From a virus (taxonomy: Duplodnaviria > Heunggongvirae > Uroviricota > Caudoviricetes), in IMG/VR virus record IMGVR_UViG_2713897161_000003: DNA of 14,535 nt; one strand, written 5' to 3'. The position numbers and the translations under genes were made by a program. This document shows, one piece after another, positions 2,271-13,805 of this stretch. The notes under the pieces are model-generated. The model made no database searches. It was given only the letters and a program-made list of their open reading frames with translations, and had not been told where the DNA came from. Position 1 is the stretch's first letter. Every line of letters starts with the position of its first letter.

Positions 2271-4067
2271 TTACTGGCCTACGATTTTAACCTGTTGAAA
2301 TTTACGACTGTGGCTGCGACGGATTTGTGCAAGCAGCAACAGCAGGCCGAGCAGAGAAACAATCGCACCGCTGATACCGGTATACACGATACCGGCGTGG
2401 CTTATAGTAATGCTGCCCAGTACTGATCCCAGCGCTATACCTGAGTTGAAGCCCGCAATATTCAGGCCGGCAGCAACACCATGCGCATGAGGAGCATGTT
2501 GCTCAGCGACACCAATCAGACGGGCCTGCAGTGCCGGCACTGCGGCAAATGTCACCATACCCAGCAGCGCAACCACAATGCCCATGCTCACCGGTGAGGA
2601 TGACAGCAGCCACATACCAAGCACGACAACAACAATGCCGCTAATGATGAGTATATTGGCACGATTAACCCCCATGCTGTCGGTAAGTTTCCCACCAAGA
2701 ATATTACCTACCGCAGCTGTAATACCGTAAACCAGCATAAACAGACTCACCGTTGCTCCGGTAACCCCTGTCACCTGCGTCAGAATAGGTGCGATAAAGG
2801 TGTAAGCCGTAAACGAGCCTGCATACGCCAGCACCGTAACCAGCGCGCCGGCCAGCAACTTACGGTTAAACAGCATGCCGATATTCTGCATTGCTGAGTC
2901 ACTATGTTCACCGGGCACGCTGCGTACGGGATCTTTCATACCGAACAACAGTCCAAGGAATCCGAACGCGCCAAAAGCGGCAATAGCGCCGAGAACTGGA
3001 CGCCATGAGACGACCCCCCNNNNNNNNNNNNNNNNNNNNNNNNNNNNNNNNNNNNNNNNNNNNNNNNNNNNNNNNNNNNNNNNNNNNNNNNNNNNNNNNN
3101 NNNNNNNNNNNNNNNNNNNNNNNNNNNNNNNNNNNNNNNNNNNNNNNNNNNNNNNNNNNNNNNNNNNNNNNNNNNNNNNNNNNNNNNNNNNNNNNNNNNN
3201 NNNNNNNNNNNNNNNNNNNNNNNNNNNNNNNNNNNNNNNNNNNNNNNNNNNNNNNNNNNNNNNNNNNNNNNNNNNNNNNNNNNNNNNNNNNNNNNNNNNN
3301 NNNNNNNNNNNNNNNNNNNNNNNNNNNNNNNNNNNNNNNNNNNNNNNNNNNNNNNNNNNNNNNNNNNNNNNNNNNNNNNNNNNNNNNNNNNNNNNNNNNN
3401 NNNNNNNNNNNNNNNNNNNNNNNNNNNNNNNNNNNNNNNNNNNNNNNNNNNNNNNNNNNNNNNNNNNNNNNNNNNNNNNNNNNNNNNNNNNNNNNNNNNN
3501 NNNNNNNNNNNNNNNNNNNNNNNNNNNNNNNNNNNNNNNNNNNNNNNNNNNNNNNNNNNNNNNNNNNNNNNNNNNNNNNNNNNNNNNNNNNNNNNNNNNN
3601 NNNNNNNNNNNNNNNNNNNNNNNNNNNNNNNNNNNNNNNNNNNNNNNNNNNNNNNNNNNNNNNNNNNNNNNNNNNNNNNNNNNCGCTCTGCCTGCTTTAC
3701 CCGGTCCAGCAAGACGAGCTGCGGTACTGGATGCCGCAGCCAGAAACAGGCCGTGTCCCAGACCAGCAATGAACCGCGCTAACAGGAGCTGAGGTAATGT
3801 GGCTGCAAACGCGGCCGCCAGACTACCGGCAGTAAACACAACGGCAGTTGTAAGCATTACATTTTTCCGGCTCCAGCTTGCTGTCAGCGCAGACAGTACG
3901 GGTGCCGCGAACGTTGCCCCCAGTGCATAGGTTGTAACCGCTGCCCCGGTCTGCTCCACACCCACACACAACCCCTGAGCCATAACGTCTGTCAGCCCAA
4001 TGGGGACAAATTCCGCGAGTCCGAGCGCAAAGGCACTGATAGTAAACACATAAATAACAAATGGCAT
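2271..4067 (-). CDS. MFS-family transporter, interrupted by an assembly gap; true length unknown
   Basis: Hydrophobic multi-helix translation on both sides of the N-run: 128 aa N-terminal part and 249 aa C-terminal part, consistent with a roughly 400-aa 12-TM MFS permease. The X-run in the ORF track is the gap artefact. Confidence 0.8.
   Translation of the reverse strand: MPFVIYVFTISAFALGLAEFVPIGLTDVMAQGLCVGVEQTGAAVTTYALGATFAAPVLSALTASWSRKNVMLTTAVVFTAGSLAAAFAATLPQLLLARFIAGLGHGLFLAAASSTAARLAGPGKAGRAXXXXXXXXXXXXXXXXXXXXXXXXXXXXXXXXXXXXXXXXXXXXXXXXXXXXXXXXXXXXXXXXXXXXXXXXXXXXXXXXXXXXXXXXXXXXXXXXXXXXXXXXXXXXXXXXXXXXXXXXXXXXXXXXXXXXXXXXXXXXXXXXXXXXXXXXXXXXXXXXXXXXXXXXXXXXXXXXXXXXXXXXXXXXXXXXXXXXXXXXXXXXXXXXXXXXXXXXXXXXXXGVVSWRPVLGAIAAFGAFGFLGLLFGMKDPVRSVPGEHSDSAMQNIGMLFNRKLLAGALVTVLAYAGSFTAYTFIAPILTQVTGVTGATVSLFMLVYGITAAVGNILGGKLTDSMGVNRANILIISGIVVVVLGMWLLSSSPVSMGIVVALLGMVTFAAVPALQARLIGVAEQHAPHAHGVAAGLNIAGFNSGIALGSVLGSITISHAGIVYTGISGAIVSLLGLLLLLAQIRRSHSRKFQQVKIVGQ
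3020..3683. other. Assembly gap, run of 664 N
   Basis: Uninterrupted N characters. Length may be an arbitrary scaffold placeholder. Confidence 0.99.
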
Positions 4068-4787
4068 GACTGGCTCCTGATTTAAGTAAGGAGTGCAGTC
4101 TGATTTAGAAAAACAGATAAATAAAATAATGTAAACTTCAGGCGGGATAAAATTATTTATATCTAAGGCAAAGATTCAATATTCCCACAGCACACAGAAG
4201 TTTTCTGTCTTCAGGGAGAGGAGCTTCGAAAGTTCAGACGAAAAATTCCTGCGGCCCCTTTAAGAGTCAGTTGGCCGGGTTTGGTCCGCTCCTCGCTCAA
4301 AGCGGACTAGAAGGTTAGCTTGCGTCGGACTTGGCGTATTTAAAGAAGTGCTGGTGGTGACTGGTTGTTGTGTTCCATTTCTACAGAACAAAATCACAGA
4401 AACTATACCCAATAGTTATATTGAATCAATGATGAGACAGCCTCATATTTATCAGAACTGGTGTACGTCCAATACAGGAGGTTGTCGTGCTGGTTCTCAA
4501 ATGTGCGCTAGCTATTGCGGCTGTAATGGCAATTTATTGTCTTGCTGTTGTTCTTATGGATCGCCTTTCTGATTGATTTTATATTGGCGAGGTGACGGGA
4601 GTTAAGTAGAATTGCTGCGGGTGCTTGAGGCTATCTGCCTCAGGCATGAACACCAAAGGCAGATAGAGAAAAGCCCCAGTTAACATTACGCGTCCTGCAA
4701 GACGCTTAACATTAATCTGAGGCTCAATCTATGAACGGCAAATCTAGGTTAGCCTCTTACGTGCCGAAAGGCAAGGAGAAGCAGGCT

Positions 4788-4943
4788 ATGAAGCAGCAAA
4801 AGGCGATGTTAATCGCCCTGATCGTCATCTGTTTAACCGTTATAGTGACGGTACTGGTAACGAGGAAAGACCTCTGCGAGGTACGAATCCGAACCGACCA
4901 GACGGAGGTCGCTGTCTTCACAGCTTACGAACTTGGGGAGTAA
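4788..4943 (+). CDS. hok: Hok/Gef-family type I toxin, 51 aa; an in-frame upstream ATG at 4731 gives a 70-codon mok-like reading frame
   Basis: Translation MKQQKAMLIALIVICLTVIVTVLVTRKDLCEVRIRTDQTEVAVFTAYELGE closely resembles HokD/HokC as recalled. Shine-Dalgarno AAGGAGAA lies 8 nt upstream of the ATG at 4788. Confidence 0.85.
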   Translation: MKQQKAMLIALIVICLTVIVTVLVTRKDLCEVRIRTDQTEVAVFTAYELGE

Positions 4944-6006: not shown

Positions 6007-6473
6007 TGGTGAATTTACGTAAAGCGGCTAAAGGCCAGATGTGCCAGATCAGAATCCCTGGCTACTGCAATCACAATCCCGAAACCTCTGTGCTGGCGCA
6101 TTACAGGCTGGCGGGGACGTGCGGAACAGCGACAAAACCACACGATATGCAGGCGGCGATAGCCTGTAGCTCATGCCACGATCTAATCGACGGGCGGGTA
6201 AAAACCAGCGATTACACCAAAGAAGAATTGCGCCTGATGCATGCTGAAGGGGTTTTCGCACACAAGAAATCTGGAGAAAGAAAGGTCATTTATGATTTAC
6301 CCAACGAATACAGGAAAAAGCGGAGAACACCTTCGCCTCACCACGCTGGAAAGTGTCTGGATTCAGGGAAAACTACGTATGTGGGGGCGCTGGTCGTATA
6401 TTGGCGGTGGCAGGTCAGGGAATATGTTCAATCAGTTGTTGGCATCCAAAAAACTGACGAAAACAGCCATTAA
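6006..6473 (+). CDS. YbcO-like phage protein (DUF1364, putative nuclease) with an atypical ~60-aa C-terminal extension
   Basis: The first ~90 aa (LRKAAKGQMCQIRIPGYCNHNPETSVLAH...ACSSCHD) match the Cys-rich prophage YbcO family as recalled, which is ~96 aa. This ORF runs to 155 aa and overlaps the Q gene in another frame. Confidence 0.65.
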   Translation: MVNLRKAAKGQMCQIRIPGYCNHNPETSVLAHYRLAGTCGTATKPHDMQAAIACSSCHDLIDGRVKTSDYTKEELRLMHAEGVFAHKKSGERKVIYDLPNEYRKKRRTPSPHHAGKCLDSGKTTYVGALVVYWRWQVREYVQSVVGIQKTDENSH

Positions 6474-6834
6474 TGAAGCCCTGCGCAGAATGAAAAAAGC
6501 GGGAATAGAGAAAGCTGAGCTGGAAGCGTTTTTGCGAGAGATGATCAACGGCAAGCAAAAGAGCTGGCTGGCGCATTGTACTGATGCAGAGGCGTTATGT
6601 ATTGATCGAGTCATAAGTGAGGTGCTGGCAGAGCATCCAGGATTGATTTGCATTCTCCGGCAACGCTATGAAGGGCGGGGGATGACTAAGCGCAAAATGG
6701 CTGAATTGCTAAATGATGCACACCCAGAGTGGTGTTTTAGCACATGCGAAAAACGGATTGCTAATTGGTTAGCTGTTGCTGAGTATGCCCTATATATTCC
6801 CATGCGTGAATCATTTGCTGAGAAAATGGCTTGA
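6292..6834 (+). CDS. Late-gene antiterminator Q (21/82-type family), 180 aa from the ATG at 6292; the ORF track offers an alternative start at 6241
   Basis: N-terminal LESVWIQGKLRMWGRWSY motif resembles the Q-antiterminator family. Positioned immediately upstream of a short terminated leader and the lysis genes. GGAGAAAGAAAGG lies upstream of the ATG at 6292. Confidence 0.75.
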   Translation: MIYPTNTGKSGEHLRLTTLESVWIQGKLRMWGRWSYIGGGRSGNMFNQLLASKKLTKTAINEALRRMKKAGIEKAELEAFLREMINGKQKSWLAHCTDAEALCIDRVISEVLAEHPGLICILRQRYEGRGMTKRKMAELLNDAHPEWCFSTCEKRIANWLAVAEYALYIPMRESFAEKMA

Positions 6835-6914
6835 TTTCTTACGTATAAACTGCTTCAATTTTGCTATGCTTCGTAAAGCTGTATCGCGAGGCGGATTGCA
6901 GACATGGACATCGT

Positions 6915-6941
6915 AAAAAAACCGCTTAATGCGGTTTTTTT
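6915..6941 (+). terminator. Intrinsic terminator, tR'-like, ~80 nt downstream of Q
   Basis: AAAAAACCGC / TTAAT loop / GCGGTTTTTT hairpin followed by a T-run. A possible extended -10 (TGcTATGCT, 6862-6870) lies upstream, giving the short-leader arrangement expected of a Q-modified late promoter. Confidence 0.6.
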
Positions 6942-7878
6942 ACGTCAGGAAAGCAGGGGAGAATGCTGCTAGTTGGGCAACTGGTCTTTCTGCTCCAAAT
7001 TATAACAGAGACCAGTTATAGTTTCGGTGCTGTGTTTTTTTTACAATATTGTGATAACACATTGCTGGCGGGAGTTTTGATATTTCTTGGCAGGGGCTGA
7101 TGATGCGTTATCCTGATGTCGTCAACTCATATAAAATGAGATGAGAGATCATTGCAGGGTGGTTTGTAATTCGCTGTTTAGCGGGACAATATGTTGTCTG
7201 ATACAAGACACCCGACGCCTCAGATTACTATAATAAAGATGAAGCATCCTTTGTATTGACCAACCACCTGTTTAGGCGGTTCTTTTTGGGCTGGTTTATT
7301 GTATGCAAAATGATTATTAAAAAGGTTGTGTTAATAACAAAATCCGAAATAATATGCCTGCATATTTTTATCTTGCTTATATTCTGCATATTGTGCATAG
7401 CAGGCTCATCCCTGCAATCAAAACTGTATGATGAGTATTTTTTGTTTTCCTTTTTTCCAGTCATCTGATGATGACCTGCTTCTTTTTAATCCGGATCGAC
7501 ATCAGTTTTTTAAGATAATTCCTGCGAGTTATATGCATAAATGCCACAAACTCCGCATTTTATGTGGTTGGGAGTTGCCGGGCGCGCAGTGAGTTTGCTA
7601 AGAAAACTCCTGCATGGTGAATCCCCCTGTGCGGTGGGGTGATACCATTAACCTTTTCTGTCGCCGACAGGTATCACGAACATTTTGTTCACCGGGAGGC
7701 ACCCGGCACCATGCACTTCAATAGATTCTCTCCACATTATGGATATTCTTTCAGAATATCCCACGCAGACTTTGTGTAAATGTTAACAAATGTGCGTTTT
7801 ATTTGATCTGATTCGCTGTTTGAGCGTCCAAAACAACGGTATATATAATCCTTTACTATATGACATATGTGAGGAAAA

Positions 7879-8307
7879 ATGGGTTTTCGTAGCGCATCAA
7901 TTCCTACGTTGATTATTAGTGGGATTATTATCGGGTGCACTGATGCTGTATCGACAAATTATCATGACCGTACATCATATTACTCCGATAAAGCAATAGA
8001 GACACAGTATGTGAGTTCATCTGAACGTACTTCTGATGTTAGTGAGGATATCCGTCTGTATGCCCATCAAATCAAGAGCGCCATCGAAAAACAGTTCGGG
8101 GATGCGAGTAAGTATTCAGGAAAAGAGTGTACACTGAGAATGCATATGGCCCCGAATGGCCTTCTACTGGAGGTTAAAAGAGAAAGTGGAGACCTCGATT
8201 TATGTCGTGAAGCGATGAATGCGATAAAGAATGCTGATATACCTGCCCCCCCTTCGCCGGAAGTATATAAAGTATTTCAAAATGGGGTGCTGGATTTTAA
8301 ACCCTGA
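7879..8307 (+). CDS. Lipoprotein with TolA C-terminal (domain III)-like domain, 142 aa
   Basis: Signal peptide with lipobox IIGC and Thr at +2. The C-terminal ~85 aa (YAHQIKSAIEKQFGDASKYSGKECTLRMHMAPNGLLLEVKRESGDLDLCREAMNAIKNADIPAPPSPEVYKVFQNGVLDFKP) closely parallel the C-terminus of E. coli TolA as recalled, including two Cys spaced 25 residues apart. Shine-Dalgarno GAGG precedes the ATG. Confidence 0.8.
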   Translation: MGFRSASIPTLIISGIIIGCTDAVSTNYHDRTSYYSDKAIETQYVSSSERTSDVSEDIRLYAHQIKSAIEKQFGDASKYSGKECTLRMHMAPNGLLLEVKRESGDLDLCREAMNAIKNADIPAPPSPEVYKVFQNGVLDFKP

Positions 8308-8457
8308 TATTTATTGTTTTGTAATAAACGGTTTCGGCTTAGGTTTGTTCTGACACAGCTACGGCACTGAGCTAAATTTAGCGGATAGTCAGCTCTGAGC
8401 CAGTGGCGGACGTAACAACTACTATTGCTGAGATTTTAATGGATTGAGGAGCAAGAA

Positions 8458-8853
8458 GTGGGATTAAAGAAAATCGTTATGTTGACTTTTTGGGTCGGTT
8501 TTGTTGCGGGATGCACACCTTTACACCCTTCAGATTGCCACAAAACTACTGCTACAGGTAGTTGCAGTTCAGGACGCTGGGATGATCAGGATGAATGGGG
8601 GGCGCAAGCGCGGGGAATCAGAGCTGCAATTAATGCCAAACTTGATGAGCCGCATAACTGGAAAGGGAAAAAATGCAGGTTGCATATGGAATTCTCTCAG
8701 GATGGCACGGCGTTAAAAATATCTACCAGTAACGGTGATAAAGCCTATTGCGAAGCGATAAAGTCCGCAGCTCATAAAGCCAAATTTCCGGCCTTCAACA
8801 ATCCGGAAGTCTACAGAGATTTTCAGAAATCTGGCTTTGACATGCGAGGTTAG
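8458..8853 (+). CDS. Diverged paralog of the TolA-domain-III-like lipoprotein, 131 aa, GTG start
   Basis: Lipobox FVAGC with Thr at +2. C-terminal KKCRLHMEFSQDGTALKISTSNGDKAYCEAIKSAAHKAKFPAFNNPEVYRDFQKSGFDMRG keeps the Cys-25-Cys spacing and the EVY..FQ motif of the upstream copy. Shine-Dalgarno GAGGAG lies 6 nt before the GTG. Confidence 0.75.
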   Translation: MGLKKIVMLTFWVGFVAGCTPLHPSDCHKTTATGSCSSGRWDDQDEWGAQARGIRAAINAKLDEPHNWKGKKCRLHMEFSQDGTALKISTSNGDKAYCEAIKSAAHKAKFPAFNNPEVYRDFQKSGFDMRG

Positions 8854-8978: not shown

Positions 8979-9002
8979 AGCTCGCTACGGCGAGCTTTTT
9001 AT
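8979..9002 (+). terminator. Intrinsic terminator downstream of the lipoprotein pair
   Basis: AGCTCGC / TACG tetraloop / GCGAGCT hairpin followed immediately by TTTTTAT. Confidence 0.65.
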
Positions 9003-9104: not shown

Positions 9105-9320
9105 ATGAAATCCATGGACAAAATTTCAACAGGCATTGCCTACGGCACCTCCGCAGGCAGTGCTGGCTACTGGTTTTTACAGTTGCTCGATAGAGTAACT
9201 CCGTCACAGTGGGCTGCAATCGGTGTGCTGGGTAGTCTGGTATTTGGCCTGCTGACGTACCTGACAAACCTTTATTTCAAGATTAAAGAAGATAAGCGCA
9301 AGGCTGCGAGAGGTGAATAA
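9105..9320 (+). CDS. Class II holin of the phage 21 S (pinholin) family, 71 aa, with dual-start motif
   Basis: [71 protein letters not shown] resembles S21/EssD as recalled. The Met1-Lys-Ser-Met4 arrangement fits the antiholin/holin dual start. GGAGGTGAGG precedes the ATG at 9105. Confidence 0.9.
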
Positions 9321-9817
9321 TGCCTCCATCATTACGAAAAGTCGTTGCTGCTGCTATTGGTGGCGGAGCAATTGCTATAGCATCAGTGTTAATCACTGGC
9401 CCAAGTGGTAACGATGGTCTGGAAGGTGTCAGCTACATACCATACAAAGATATTGTTGGTGTATGGACTGTATGTCACGGGCATACAGGAAAAGACATCA
9501 TGCTCGGTAAAACGTATACCAAAGCAGAATGCAAAACACTCTTGAATAAAGACCTTGCCACGGTCGCCAGACAAATTAACCCGTACATCAAAGTCGATAT
9601 ACCGGAAACAACGCGCGGCGCTCTTTACTCATTCGTTTACAACGTGGGTGCTGGCAATTTCAGAACATCGACGCTTCTTCGCAAAATAAACCAGGGCGAT
9701 ATCAAAGGCGCATGTGATCAGCTACGTCGCTGGACATATGCTGGCGGTAAGCAATGGAAAGGTCTCATGACTCGTCGTGAGATTGAGCGTGAAATCTGTT
9801 TGTGGGGTCAGCAATGA
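9320..9817 (+). CDS. SAR endolysin (lysozyme, R21/RrrD-like), 165 aa
   Basis: N-terminal Gly/Ala-rich signal-anchor-release segment ([21 protein letters not shown]) followed by a lysozyme-like domain. Start overlaps the holin stop (TAATG). Confidence 0.92.
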
Positions 9818-10278
9818 ACAGAGTAACCGCGATTATCTCCGCTCTGGTTATCTGCATCGTCGTCTGCCTGTCATGGGGTGTTAATCATTACCGTGATAAC
9901 GCCATCGCCTACAAAGAACAGCGCGACAAAAATGCCAGAGAACTGAAGCTGGCGAACGCGGCAATTACTGACATGCAGATGCGTCAGCGTGATGTTGCTG
10001 CGCTCGATGCAAAATACACGAAGGAGTTAGCTGATGCGAAAGCTGAAAATGATGTTCTGCGTGATGATGTTGCCGCTGGTCGTCGTCGGTTGCACATCAA
10101 AGCAGTCTGTCAGTCAGTGCGTGAAGCCACCACCGCCTCCGGCGTGGATAATGCAGCCTCCCCCCGACTGGCAGACACCGCTGAACGGGATTATTTCACC
10201 CTCCGGGAACGACTGGTAATGATGCAGGCCCAACTTGAAGGTGCTCAGCAATACATAACCGAGCAGTGTTTAAAGTAA
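9814..10278 (+). CDS. Rz-type i-spanin, 154 aa from the ATG at 9814; the ORF track gives a GTG alternative at 9802
   Basis: N-terminal transmembrane helix then a coiled-coil-like periplasmic domain. The ATG overlaps the endolysin stop (ATGA). Resembles RzpD as recalled. Confidence 0.88.
10034..10219 (+). CDS. Rz1-type o-spanin lipoprotein, 61 aa, embedded in the +1 frame of Rz
   Basis: Lipobox LVVVGC and a proline-rich mature region ([15 protein letters not shown]), entirely nested within Rz. Shine-Dalgarno AAGGAG lies 7 nt upstream. Confidence 0.88.
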
Positions 10279-10415
10279 AATCTTAACTACAATATGATTC
10301 ATTTTGATGATTGTTTCATAAGGAACAGTGAAGTAAGATCTAAGAGGAGTTAAATTTTATACAGTATAATCATAATATTGCAGCAAGGTGGTTATAATTG
10401 AAAGAATATTTAGAT

Positions 10416-11873
10416 ATGAATACATCTCATGTAAGAGTTGTTACTCATATGTGTGGGTTCCTGGTTTGGCTCTATAGTCTTTCAATGTTGCCACCAATGG
10501 TTGTAGCATTGTTTTATAAAGAAAAAAGCCTGTTCGTTTTCTTTATAACTTTCGTTATATTTTTTTGCATTGGTGGCGGAGCGTGGTATACAACTAAGAA
10601 ATCTGGCATTCAATTACGTACCCGTGATGGGTTTATTATAATTGTAATGTTTTGGATTTTGTTTTCTGTTATTAGTGCATTCCCTTTATGGATTGACTCA
10701 GAACTTAATTTAACGTTCATTGATGCTCTGTTTGAAGGGGTTTCTGGAATAACAACAACAGGAGCAACTGTAATTGATGATGTTAGTTCATTACCTCGGG
10801 CATATTTGTACTATCGGTCACAGTTAAATTTTATAGGTGGTTTAGGAGTTATTGTTCTGGCGGTTGCTGTATTGCCATTATTGGGTATTGGTGGTGCAAA
10901 GCTTTATCAGTCAGAAATGCCGGGGCCATTTAAGGATGACAAACTCACTCCCCGCCTGGCCGATACGTCACGGACACTGTGGATAACTTATTCTTTATTA
11001 GGTATTGCTTGTATTGTCTGTTATAGACTTGCAGGAATGCCTTTGTTTGATGCTATTTGTCACGGGATTTCCACAGTTTCGCTTGGTGGTTTCTCAACTC
11101 ATAGCGAGAGTATCGGATATTTTAATAACTATTTGGTTGAGCTGGTGGCTGGTTCTTTTTCCCTGCTATCGGCTTTCAACTTCACTCTTTGGTATATTGT
11201 TATTAGCAGGAAAACGATAAAACTTTTAATCAGAGATATTGAACTTCGTTTCTTTCTGTTAATAGCCTTAGGGGTGATCATTGTTACCTCTTTCCAGGTC
11301 TGGCATATAGGTATGTATGACTTGCATGGAAGTTTTATTCATTCGTTTTTTCTTGCCAGCTCCATGCTCACTGATAATGGTTTAGCTACGCAGGATTATG
11401 CAAGTTGGCCCACGCACACGATAGTGTTTTTGCTGTTGTCAAGTTTCTTTGGGGGATGTATAGGTTCAACTTGTGGTGGAATTAAGTCACTTCGATTTCT
11501 TATACTTTTCAAACAAAGCAAACACGAGATAAATCAGCTTTCTCATCCCAGAGCGTTGTTGAGTGTAAATGTAGGAGGGAAGATAGTTACAGATCGTGTA
11601 ATGAGGTCTGTATGGAGTTTCTTTTTTCTTTATACTCTCTTCACGGTGTTTTTTATACTGGTGTTAAATGGTATGGGATATGATTTTCTTACATCATTTG
11701 CAACAGTGGCTGCATGTATTAATAATATGGGATTAGGTTTTGGGGCTACTGCATCGTCATTCGGAGTGCTTAATGACATTGCAAAATGTTTAATGTGCAT
11801 AGCTATGATTCTTGGTCGCCTTGAAATTTATCCTGTTATTATATTGTTTTCAGGTTTTTTTTGGCGCTCCTAA
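10416..11873 (+). CDS. trkG: TrkG/TrkH-family potassium uptake protein, 485 aa from the ATG at 10416
   Basis: Polytopic membrane protein recognised as the Rac-prophage TrkG (MNTSHVRVVTHMCGFLVWLYSLSMLPPMVVALFYKEKS...). The gene is markedly AT-rich relative to its neighbours. The ORF-track start at 10398 is TTG. Confidence 0.92.
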   Translation: MNTSHVRVVTHMCGFLVWLYSLSMLPPMVVALFYKEKSLFVFFITFVIFFCIGGGAWYTTKKSGIQLRTRDGFIIIVMFWILFSVISAFPLWIDSELNLTFIDALFEGVSGITTTGATVIDDVSSLPRAYLYYRSQLNFIGGLGVIVLAVAVLPLLGIGGAKLYQSEMPGPFKDDKLTPRLADTSRTLWITYSLLGIACIVCYRLAGMPLFDAICHGISTVSLGGFSTHSESIGYFNNYLVELVAGSFSLLSAFNFTLWYIVISRKTIKLLIRDIELRFFLLIALGVIIVTSFQVWHIGMYDLHGSFIHSFFLASSMLTDNGLATQDYASWPTHTIVFLLLSSFFGGCIGSTCGGIKSLRFLILFKQSKHEINQLSHPRALLSVNVGGKIVTDRVMRSVWSFFFLYTLFTVFFILVLNGMGYDFLTSFATVAACINNMGLGFGATASSFGVLNDIAKCLMCIAMILGRLEIYPVIILFSGFFWRS

Positions 11874-12035: not shown

Positions 12036-12542
12036 ATGCGTGGCTGGATGATTAAGGGCAAGCCCGCCAGTGATCGAGCCGTATTGTCTCAGGAACAGGA
12101 CGGCATTAAATCACACACCCACAGCGCCAGCGTATCCAGTACGGATTTGGGGACGAAAACCACATCGTCGTTTGATTACGGCACTAAATCCACGAATAAC
12201 ACTGGTGCGCATACCCATAGTGTTAGCGGTACGGCTGCTTCAGCCGGTGCACATACCCATTCGATGACATTTGTTTCAGGTGGTTCCAGTGGTGCTCCGG
12301 GAAGTGGAGCATCTGATTATTCTAAATACAGTGTTAACACTTCTTCTGCAGGCGCTCATACGCACTCTGTATCGGGTACTGCTGCAAGCGCAGGTGCACA
12401 CGCACATACTGTGGGTATTGGTGCTCATACGCACTCGGTTGCGATTGGCTCACATGGACACACCATCACCGTTAACGCTGCTGGTAACGCGGAAAACACC
12501 GTCAAAAACATCGCATTTAACTATATTGTGAGGCTTGCATAA
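12036..12542 (+). CDS. Side-tail-fibre C-terminal tip fragment (Stf-like), 168 aa, His-rich repeats
   Basis: Multiple stops lie in-frame just upstream, so the ORF is not fused to any fibre shaft. Seven HxH motifs (mostly GAHTHS) sit in Gly/Ser/Thr-rich sequence. Stop overlaps the tfa start (TAATG). Confidence 0.7.
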
Positions 12543-13117
12543 TGGTATTCAGAATGAGTGAACAACCACGGACCATAACAATTTATAATCTGCTGGCCGG
12601 AACTAATGAATTTATTGGTGAAGGTGATGCATATATTCCGCCTCATACAGGTCTGCCAGCAAACAGTACCGATATTGCACCGCCAGATATTCCGGCAGGC
12701 TTCGTGGCTGTTTTCAACAGTGATGAGGCATCGTGGCATCTCGTTGAAGATCATCGGGGTAAAACGGTTTATGACGTGGCTTCCGGCGACGCGTTATTTA
12801 TTTCTGAACTCGGTCCGTTACCGGAAAATGTTACCTGGTTATCGCCGGAAGGGGAGTTTCAGAAGTGGAACGGCACAGCCTGGGTGAAGGATACGGAAGC
12901 AGAAAAACTGTTCCGGATCCGGGAGGCGGAAGAAACAAAAAACAACCTGATGCAGGTAGCCAGTGAGCATATTGCGCCGCTTCAGGATGCTGCAGATCTG
13001 GAAATTGCAACGGAGGAAGAAATCTCGTTGCTGGAAGCATGGAAAAAGTATCGGGTATTGCTGAACCGTGTTGATACGTCAACTTCACAGGATATTGAAT
13101 GGCCAGCACTGCCGTAG
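12542..13117 (+). CDS. tfa: Tail fibre assembly protein, 191 aa
   Basis: Resembles TfaR/TfaQ of E. coli cryptic prophages as recalled ([73 protein letters not shown]). Translationally coupled to the fibre-tip ORF. Confidence 0.9.
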
Positions 13118-13214: not shown

Positions 13215-13805
13215 TTATATGTCAGGTGTCTGAAGTTTTGCTTTGGCTCTTAAAATGGTTTGCCGCGAGGTTTTGAATTCCCGGGCAATGGCACTTATAC
13301 TTACACCTGACTTAATTCGTTCGAATACCACCTGTTTCTGTTCTTCATTTAACACAGGTGGTCGACCAAAACGTTTCCCTGCGCCGCGGGCTCTTACTAT
13401 CCCGGAATGAGTGCGTTCAAGTAAAAGGTCTCGTTCAAATTCAGCGACTGCTGAAATTACTTGCATCATCATTTTTCCTGTTGGACTGGTCAGGTCAATG
13501 CCCCCCAATGCTAAGCAATGCACTCTGATACCTGTTTCGGTCAGTTGTTCCACTGTTTTCCTGATATCCATTGCATTACAACCAAGGCGATCCAGTTTTG
13601 TCACAATCAATTGATCACCACATTTCAGGCGAGCAAGCAACCGGTTAAAACCAGGACGCTCACTGGTTGCTGCTGAGCCACTAATGTGTTCTTCGATTAT
13701 TTGCTGAGGTTTGATTTTAAAACCTGCACTTTCGATTTCCCGGCGTTGATTTTCGGTGGTCTGATCCAGCGTTGATATCCGACAGTAAGCAAAAATTTGA
13801 GACAT
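13215..13805 (-). CDS. pin: Serine-recombinase DNA invertase of the Pin/Gin/Hin family, 196 aa
   Basis: N-terminal catalytic motif [10 protein letters not shown] (active-site Ser), resolvase-type domain and C-terminal helix-turn-helix. Convergent with tfa. Confidence 0.95.

Follow-up and report, generated by a model that had tools for sequence, protein, structure and literature searches.

What are two small lipoprotein genes, each ending in what resembles a domain of a host envelope protein, doing between the late antiterminator and the holin of a prophage? The question is raised by a DNA stretch of 14,535 nucleotides (IMG/VR record IMGVR_UViG_2713897161_000003, hereafter the window), the whole of which is an E. 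coli lambdoid prophage region. The two open reading frames (ORFs) concerned, ORF1 and ORF2, lie in tandem at positions 7879 to 8853. We found that both are lipoprotein-type precursors with a genuine TolA domain III (TolA-III) fold and its cysteine pair, and that mobile elements repeatedly carry TolA-III lipoprotein genes as a self-contained cargo. As to their function, we think it quite possible, if still short of probable, that the products act as outer-membrane-tethered competitors or decoys for Tol-dependent colicins/bacteriocins and filamentous phages (inoviruses).

The initial annotation, made from the sequence alone, had read the C-terminal domains of both ORFs as TolA-III-like, and profile and structure comparisons bear this out. 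Against Pfam PF06519, whose gathering cut-off is 25 bits, residues 49-140 of ORF1 scored 82.6 bits (E 2.4e-23) and residues 44-125 of ORF2 scored 54.6 bits (E 1.3e-14). Phmmer comparison with the solved chains of E. coli TolA-III gave E values of ~1e-28 for ORF1 and ~5e-9 for ORF2. Identity to TolA residues 336-421 amounted to 52 of 86 positions (60%) and 26 of 77 positions (34%), respectively. The two cysteines of each domain (C84/C109 in ORF1, C73/C98 in ORF2) do have the 25-residue spacing of C363/C388 in TolA, as had been noticed, and are invariant in the alignments. AlphaFold2 models of the domains reached predicted local distance difference test (pLDDT) values of at least 90, and the N-terminal 40-50 residues stayed below 50. 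The best match of the ORF1 model was 2x9a_B, with a root-mean-square deviation (rmsd) of 0.6 A over 86 columns and a template modelling (TM) score of 0.94, and that of the ORF2 model was 3qdp (rmsd 1.1 A over 83 columns, TM 0.89). The top Foldseek matches were all TolA-III, followed by Vibrio and Pseudomonas TolA-III and then by TonB C-terminal domains.

Neither protein is a full-length TolA. Both lack the transmembrane domain I and the helical domain II, and their genes do not lie in a tolQRA-tolB-pal operon. The NCBIfam TolA models cover the proteins at the C-terminal end only (positions 293-386 for ORF1 and 304-382 for ORF2, of 387). The PRK09510 scores were 107.8 and 53.7 for ORF1 and ORF2, under the cut-off of 213, and the TIGR02794 score of ORF1 was 75.6, over the cut-off of 59.45. 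Because the TolA models match at C-terminal ends only, the RefSeq name of ORF1, 'cell envelope integrity protein TolA', is a misleading over-annotation.

The lipoprotein signal peptides, with Cys followed by Thr, that had been predicted for both ORFs were also confirmed. Both N-termini follow the lipoprotein rule of a basic n-region, an uncharged h-region and a lipobox. In ORF1 the signal peptide MGFRSASIPTLIISGIIIG precedes the Cys of the lipobox IIGC (Cys20, Thr at +2), and in ORF2 MGLKKIVMLTFWVGFVAG precedes that of the lipobox VAGC (Cys19, Thr at +2). When scored with the pattern [LVI][ASTVI][GAS]C, a lipobox was present in all 120 listed proteins of the ORF2 family and in 34 of the 46 proteins of the ORF1 family. 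Of the 12 ORF1-family proteins outside the pattern, 11 are truncated, partial or disrupted, and the full-length protein P0147 has LTNGC, which the pattern misses. The +2 residue is A, S, T, G or V across both families, and Asp in none. Outer-membrane sorting is therefore predicted, given that the lipobox is conserved and position +2 is never Asp. Lipoprotein processing, localisation, ligand binding, expression timing and a protective phenotype of ORF1 and ORF2 are inferred.

The linker of ORF2, TPLHPSDCHKTTATGSCSSGRWDDQDEWG (residues 20-48), contains two extra cysteines, C27 and C36, is near-invariant across genera and has a low-confidence model. It is probably a second functional element. A part of it (…GSCSSGRWDDQDEWG…) was considered as a mimic of the colicin TolB box, DGSGW…W, and was dropped since only Trp residues match. 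The GTG start of ORF2 and a leader of ~100 bp are kept in copies from plasmids, Enterobacter, Citrobacter and Serratia.

The initial annotation had also described the genes as two tandem diverged copies. This description has to be given up. ORF1 and ORF2 share 28% identity, and a neighbour-joining tree built on the domain places the ORF1 family next to true enterobacterial TolA-III, ORF1 being 59% identical to that of E. coli, 57% to that of Klebsiella and 45% to that of Salmonella. ORF2 belongs to a separate deep clade that is marked at the N-terminus by the Cys-x8-Cys segment and at the C-terminus by its own motif, [FLW]-[DN]-M-x-G. Tandem duplication was rejected on both the identity and the tree, because of which the genes look like two separately acquired cassettes. 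The further suggestion of diversification against different ligands does not fit ORF2. In comparisons among Escherichia, Enterobacter, Citrobacter and Serratia, the ratio of nonsynonymous to synonymous substitution rates (dN/dS) of its lineage was 0.04-0.12, and for the linker it was 0.01-0.08. In view of this strong purifying selection, to which the linker too is subject, ORF2 does not resemble an arms-race protein. Between ORF1 and a 65%-identical variant, dN/dS was 0.24 for the TolA-III part and 0.52 for the signal peptide and linker together.

Nor are the two genes always found together: other prophages carry an ORF1-type gene by itself, and solo ORF2-type genes are present in chromosomes and on plasmids. 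The ORF1 family, a narrow one of 46 clusters, has only E. coli or Shigella among the sources named. Its homologue search missed full-length TolA owing to the word index, and a TolA-III query was used instead. The ORF2 family is broad, with 370 clusters and members in 25 species-representative genomes across Enterobacterales. The module (at least 80% of its length) is present in 771 of 5426 complete E. coli genomes, nearly always at 99% identity or more. ORF1 and ORF2 stand together in 80 IMG/VR loci, where the Q and lysozyme genes represent at least two distinct backbones, and the ORF1 lineage was found in two different Q-holin backbones. Only one of 50,697 phage records, that of the isolated phage mEp460_ev081, carries the genes, and the evidence base therefore consists of prophages and IMG/VR contigs.

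Alignment-based viral scans for diverse relatives brought up little beyond the E. coli module already described and six loci in which an ORF1 variant stands alone. Such variants lie downstream of Q and tRNA genes, and next come a gene with a NanS-p-type domain set (DUF1737, SASA, DUF6645), DUF1378, DUF826 and the holin; in the layout of Stx phages, this slot is normally that of stx. An exhaustive phmmer search over 1.84 billion representatives gave 130 matches, most of 110-160 amino acids with a lipobox. The TolA-III query revealed further lipoprotein lineages with 55-70% identity to E. coli TolA-III. One of them, P0327, is flanked by a Phage_antitermQ gene on one side and by a holin_3_1-lysozyme-Rz cassette on the other, and so by another Q type and another holin type. 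Another was found on a phage- or plasmid-like contig, and yet another adjoins icd in Serratia.

These results bear on whether the genes are non-functional debris, that is, tolA fragments that arose by illegitimate recombination and were mis-called as genes. Such an origin would accord with the plain 'TolA' name of ORF1 in RefSeq and with the many truncated or insertion sequence-disrupted copies. We regard it as very improbable in view of the intact Shine-Dalgarno sequences, the signal peptides and lipoboxes conserved family-wide, the strong purifying selection, the 771 genomes with near-identical modules and the confident domain models.

The residues that bind ligands on TolA-III were then compared. 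The TolB N-terminus, ColN and g3p bind the beta3 strand by beta-strand addition, the D418P or K420P change in TolA abolishes binding with a full tol phenotype, and what counts at this strand is the Asp together with beta-forming residues (PMC4339652). The strand L417-P421 of TolA, LDFKP, is identical in ORF1. In ORF2 it reads FDMRG, which retains the Asp and the beta-formers and is a partial match to the beta3 residues L417, D418 and K420. ColA binds the opposite edge of TolA-III, L375-P380, via K368, K379 and K396 (PMC3365938). This edge, LLDIKP in TolA, is LLEVKR in ORF1 and ALKIST in ORF2, and at the positions of the three lysines ORF1 has H/K/K and ORF2 has E/S/H.

How might such proteins act as decoys? 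ORF1 and ORF2 would be exported, lipid-modified at Cys20 and Cys19, and sorted by the Lol system to the inner leaflet of the outer membrane, and a stand-alone TolA-III on a linker of ~30 residues would be displayed between the outer membrane and the peptidoglycan. As they are without TolA domains I and II, the proteins should be unable to couple to TolQR, and for want of this coupling bound ligands would be held in a dead-end complex. The tethered domains would thus compete with host TolA for ligands that use beta-strand addition, namely the translocation domains of group A colicins/klebicins, the colicin-primed TolB N-terminus and the N1 domain of filamentous-phage g3p. The outcome would be that the lysogen or plasmid host tolerates Tol-dependent bacteriocins and inoviruses. 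There is precedent in engineered cells: a periplasmic TolA-III reportedly made E. coli colicin-tolerant in the work of Levengood-Freyermuth et al. in J Bacteriol in 1993, and periplasmic g3p is said to have done likewise in that of Boeke et al. in 1982. The colicin and phage (Ff) tolerance conferred by engineered periplasmic TolA-III or g3p comes with leakiness and vesicles. Domain identity, fold, the conserved lipobox, the exact beta3 strand of ORF1 and carriage by mobile elements are established and speak for the decoy function; purifying selection is established as well.

The strongest support for it comes from two plasmid contexts, an operon with a TonB domain and a position directly past a relaxase. 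On NZ_CP031718.1, a 10,060-bp ColRNAI plasmid of Klebsiella pneumoniae, a TolA-III lipoprotein gene and a gene for a TonB C-terminal domain overlap by 4 bp (locus L085, 1512-2245, minus strand). The lipoprotein has the lipobox LLTAC followed by K and the C-terminal end APLDFRP. Its partner is a protein of 121 amino acids with a signal peptide and a Pfam TonB_C match (E 9e-11). In this one plasmid examined, the operon adjoins a klebicin (tRNase)-immunity-lysis operon. The TonB gene is present on 422 plasmids, mostly small and mobilizable (371 with at least 80% query coverage; 373 from Klebsiella), and TolA is annotated beside it in the plasmid rows listed. Joint export of free hub domains of both bacteriocin import pathways is hard to explain other than by import blockade. 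A decoy function of ORF1 and ORF2 is plausible, and this operon lends it circumstantial support, by association only, the TonB_C partner being absent from this window.

The second context concerns ORF2-type genes, which occur on 607 plasmids of E. coli/Shigella. On NZ_CP095273.1, an IncK2/Z conjugative plasmid of the IncI complex (locus L004, 321-3875), such a gene, with 88% amino-acid identity, lies 68 bp 3' of a nikA/nikB-type relaxase operon in the same orientation. I-type pili of such conjugative plasmids are receptors for TolA-dependent filamentous phages. On pO157 (locus L003, 5995-6426), the ORF2-type gene is found past psiB-psiA-hok.

In chromosomes, the neighbours of solo ORF2-type genes differ by genus: gpx/RidA in Enterobacter, lactonase/ars in Citrobacter, and nrdDG/GmrSD plus HEPN in Serratia. 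In Serratia marcescens (locus L098, 5001-7736) the solo gene adjoins GmrSD_N (DUF262) and HEPN genes, which are of the defence type. This neighbourhood may be a defence-island context and counts in favour of the decoy function.

The chromosomal copies raise the alternative that ORF2-type proteins serve a conserved role of their own in the envelope, where the diverged TolA-III fold, the Cys-x8-Cys segment or both would bind a partner, and that the copies on prophages and plasmids are passengers or confer an unrelated benefit. The low dN/dS across four genera and in the linker, the solo genes in non-phage neighbourhoods, the 25 species-representative genomes of Enterobacterales and the deep clade with its own C-terminal motif would all agree with such a role. 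The change of neighbours in every genus and the patchy distribution, however, are more typical of mobile accessory genes than of the core genome, about 600 plasmids carry the gene, the model can still be superposed on TolA-III with an rmsd of 1.1 A, and no other partner can be named. We therefore judge this alternative unlikely, while giving it appreciable weight.

The surroundings of the pair in the window are listed in Table 1. The gene order is DUF1367, DUF1364, Q-like DUF1133, ORF1, ORF2, P21-type holin, lysozyme, Rz/Rz1, trkG, tail-fibre genes and invertase, and the RefSeq annotation of the same region in SE11 agrees with holin, lysozyme and Rz/Rz1 downstream of the pair. The position between the Q-like gene and the holin, along with the stx-like position of the ORF1 variant, upholds the earlier view of a late-region cargo slot such as that of stx. 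The terminator that had been placed after the pair was likewise recovered, and analogous hairpins occur 3' of TolA-III lipoprotein genes in two other prophage contexts. The GC content is 42.7% in ORF1, 46.0% in ORF2 and 37-41% in the spacers, below that of the neighbour genes. Its own terminator, insertion between conserved phage modules and atypical composition give the cassette features of a moron.

Table 1. Coordinates of the lipoprotein genes, their parts and the elements on their flanks, in window positions.
Feature	Position	Strand	Details
Q-like late antiterminator	6241-6834	+	Pfam DUF1133 E 3.5e-107; weak Phage_antitermQ E 9e-6; upstream edge of cargo slot
Hairpin with A and T runs on its flanks	6912-6944	+	-19.7 kcal/mol, z = -5.3 (RNA fold); ~80 nt past Q-like gene
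STnc100 small RNA match	7582-7768	+	Rfam, 86.6 bits against a gathering score of 47; ~110 nt 5' of ORF1
Sigma-70 promoter-like site TTGAGC-18-TATAAT	7820-7849	+	10/12 consensus matches, pattern only; 30 nt 5' of ORF1 start
ORF1, lipoprotein precursor	7879-8307	+	142 aa; ATG start; GAGGA 5 nt upstream
ORF1 signal peptide and lipobox Cys20	7879-7938		
ORF1 linker	7939-8040		Low-confidence model
ORF1 TolA-III	8041-8304		Residues 55-142
Promoter-like site CTGACA-17-TAAATT	8350-8378	+	9/12 consensus matches, pattern only; ORF1-ORF2 spacer
ORF2, lipoprotein precursor	8458-8853	+	131 aa; GTG start; GAGGAG 7 nt upstream
ORF2 signal peptide and lipobox Cys19	8458-8514		
ORF2 Cys-x8-Cys linker	8515-8601		
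ORF2 TolA-III	8602-8850		Residues 49-131
Intrinsic terminator-like hairpin and T-run	8979-9002	+	Hairpin 8979-8996; -13 kcal/mol, z = -4.0; 3' of the pair
P21-type holin S	9105-9320	+	Pfam Phage_holin_2_1 E 2e-35; downstream edge of slot; lysozyme and Rz/Rz1 next

The hairpin past the Q-like gene is probably the terminator of a short late-leader transcript (tR'-like). Between this hairpin and ORF1 lie ~940 bp of non-coding, AT-rich DNA (40% GC). The STnc100 element is also found 5' of the pair in phage mEp460_ev081 (locus L002, 5891-6081), and is absent 5' of the solo ORF1 variants. Plasmid copies of the ORF2-type gene have a related CTGACA segment upstream too. The number of promoter-like sites in the region barely exceeds the shuffled expectation, and a scan of two other prophage contexts with TolA-III lipoprotein genes found no convincing promoter. 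A 'TolA'-type gene of CP-933O, EDL933_2012, is given as 32-fold ciprofloxacin-induced in PMC11125564; the table of that paper calls it a tail fibre protein, and it was therefore not used as expression evidence.

An embedded Rz1-type o-spanin ORF (10034-10219, plus strand; lipobox LVVVGC followed by T, proline-rich mature part) lies inside Rz (9802-10278), and the prophage hence has a complete holin-endolysin-spanin lysis set. Directly past the lysis cassette, a trkG potassium transporter gene (10398-11873, plus strand, 37.7% GC) is a further cargo gene. Elsewhere in the window, a hok/sok-type toxin-antitoxin module is located at 4619-4943 on the plus strand (Rfam sok, 111.7 bits, and a Hok-like ORF with …KQQKAMLIALIVICLTVIVTVLVTRKDLCEVRIRTDQTEVAVFTAYE…), and 664 N, masked or unsequenced, at 3020-3683 fall within a minus-strand ORF resembling MFS transporters (2271-4067). 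Toward the end, a tail-fibre fragment with repeated GAHTHS motifs (12036-12542) precedes an ORF at 12542-13117, probably a tail-fibre assembly gene, within which Rfam IS009 RNA matches at 12885-13083 on the plus strand (220.9 bits). A Pin/Hin-type invertase ORF (13215-13805, minus strand) adjoins it.

The location of the pair within the late operon suggests another function, which would serve the phage rather than its host. A tethered TolA-III could titrate the TolB N-terminus and block the TolA-TolB-Pal cycle. Expressed late in a Q-dependent manner, it would make the outer membrane looser and the cell more prone to vesiculation or leakage, which would aid lysis or release; the lysogen would not be protected. 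In line with this, the Q-holin position recurs in at least three independent lineages, Q-modified polymerase would pass the terminators that follow the gene, and the weak promoter evidence favours a late function. The TolB-binding strand is exact in ORF1, periplasmic Tol-interacting domains increase vesiculation (PMC8488215), and a block of the TolA-TolB interaction leads to the full tol phenotype (PMC4339652). On the other hand, the same gene types are found on plasmids and chromosomes without a lysis cassette, the TonB C-terminal domain that is the plasmid partner has no obvious role in loosening the outer membrane, and the prophage already has its complete lysis set. The cassette is also bracketed by a promoter-like site and a terminator, as lysogenic-conversion morons are. 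On balance, we consider it unlikely that sabotage of Tol-Pal is what the genes are for.

Several points weigh against the decoy function as well. ORF2, with its low identity to TolA-III, is without the lysines that make cation-pi contacts with ColA. Its high conservation across genera, in ordinary chromosomal neighbourhoods, would be expected of a protein with a conserved cellular partner more than of one engaged in an arms race. A plausible candidate for a promoter of its own was seen only 5' of ORF1 in this window, and none that convinces in the other prophage contexts, and for this reason ORF1 may be mainly a late gene of cells about to lyse, in which tolerance is of little value. A TolA-III that retains LDFKP and is expressed in lysogens should also trap the TolB N-terminus, with a costly tol phenotype. 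Finally, PADLOC models gave no match to ORF1 or ORF2, and neither profile searches nor PADLOC returned a named exclusion or defence family for them. Explanations outside those considered here take up the small share of probability that remains.

A broader proposal can be built on the decoy function, and we hold it with distinctly more reserve. Temperate phages and the conjugative and bacteriocin plasmids of Enterobacterales may carry a so far overlooked class of protection genes, the products of which are uncoupled, exported hub domains (a TolA-III lipoprotein or a soluble periplasmic TonB C-terminal domain). As decoys these would provide broad tolerance to Tol- or Ton-dependent bacteriocins and to filamentous phages, independent of immunity proteins. 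ORF1 and ORF2 would be independently recruited members of this class with different ligand ranges.

Should ORF1 and ORF2 prove to be decoys, a general and inexpensive protection from group A colicins/klebicins and inoviruses would be present in roughly one sequenced E. coli strain in seven and on more than a thousand plasmids, and it would require neither cognate immunity proteins nor the loss of a receptor. Such protection would matter for the interpretation of gut competition by colicins, for differences in bacteriocin sensitivity among lysogens and plasmid hosts, for the robustness of bacteriocin- or phage-based therapeutics, and for the reading of M13 susceptibility in wild strains. It would also mean that mobile elements copy a periplasmic hub of the host instead of masking a surface receptor. 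If the proteins sabotage Tol-Pal, phages would turn out to have a new auxiliary factor for lysis or for the production of vesicles.

The initial annotation knew of no characterised system of this kind. That holds in so far as no functional study of these proteins was found in the full-text literature, a search that left subscription-only literature outside. The genes themselves are already named as TolA-domain proteins in RefSeq and Pfam, PHROG 5772 is labelled 'unknown function', and 'tolA' on small plasmids is mentioned in passing in PMC6807383 and PMC10269471. The domain assignment is thus known. The literature found does not describe the biology that we propose, in which decoys made of a hub domain are natural, mobile and tethered to the outer membrane and have, on some plasmids, a counterpart derived from TonB.

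Comparison with known systems places ORF1 and ORF2 as follows. With domain III of E. coli TolA (PDB 1TOL, 1S62, 2X9A, 3QDP/3QDR) both share the Pfam family, the fold and the Cys pair, and ORF1 shares the C-terminal beta3 strand LDFKP. They differ in having a lipoprotein signal and a predicted outer-membrane tether, whereas domain III of TolA hangs from the energised inner-membrane TolQR motor. The mechanism proposed for them is that of the engineered periplasmic TolA-III, g3p and colicin T-domains attributed to Levengood-Freyermuth (1993), Boeke (1982) and Henry (2004), in which a free Tol-interacting domain competes with the native Tol network. Those are laboratory constructs, whereas ORF1 and ORF2 are natural, predicted to be lipid-anchored, under selection, and carried on prophages and plasmids. 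A periplasmic TonB C-terminal domain is reported to have been a dominant-negative inhibitor of TonB-dependent uptake in the hands of Howard et al. in 2001; the logic is the same for the other import pathway, and on the small plasmids, mostly of Klebsiella, a natural exported TonB_C domain is encoded in one operon with a TolA-III lipoprotein.

Cor (phi80/N15/mEp phages), Llp (T5) and TraT (F) are outer-membrane exclusion lipoproteins that act on the receptors FhuA and OmpA. ORF1 and ORF2 would resemble them as small outer-membrane lipoproteins of mobile elements that block the entry of competitors. We know of no report of a TolA-III fold in Cor, Llp or TraT, and these target outer-membrane receptors, whereas ORF1 and ORF2 instead mimic a periplasmic import hub. 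With moron cargo such as stx in the lambdoid Q-to-lysis interval, the pair has in common the slot, a lower GC content and a terminator after it. In contrast to stx, the predicted product of ORF1 and ORF2 is an envelope lipoprotein and not a toxin.

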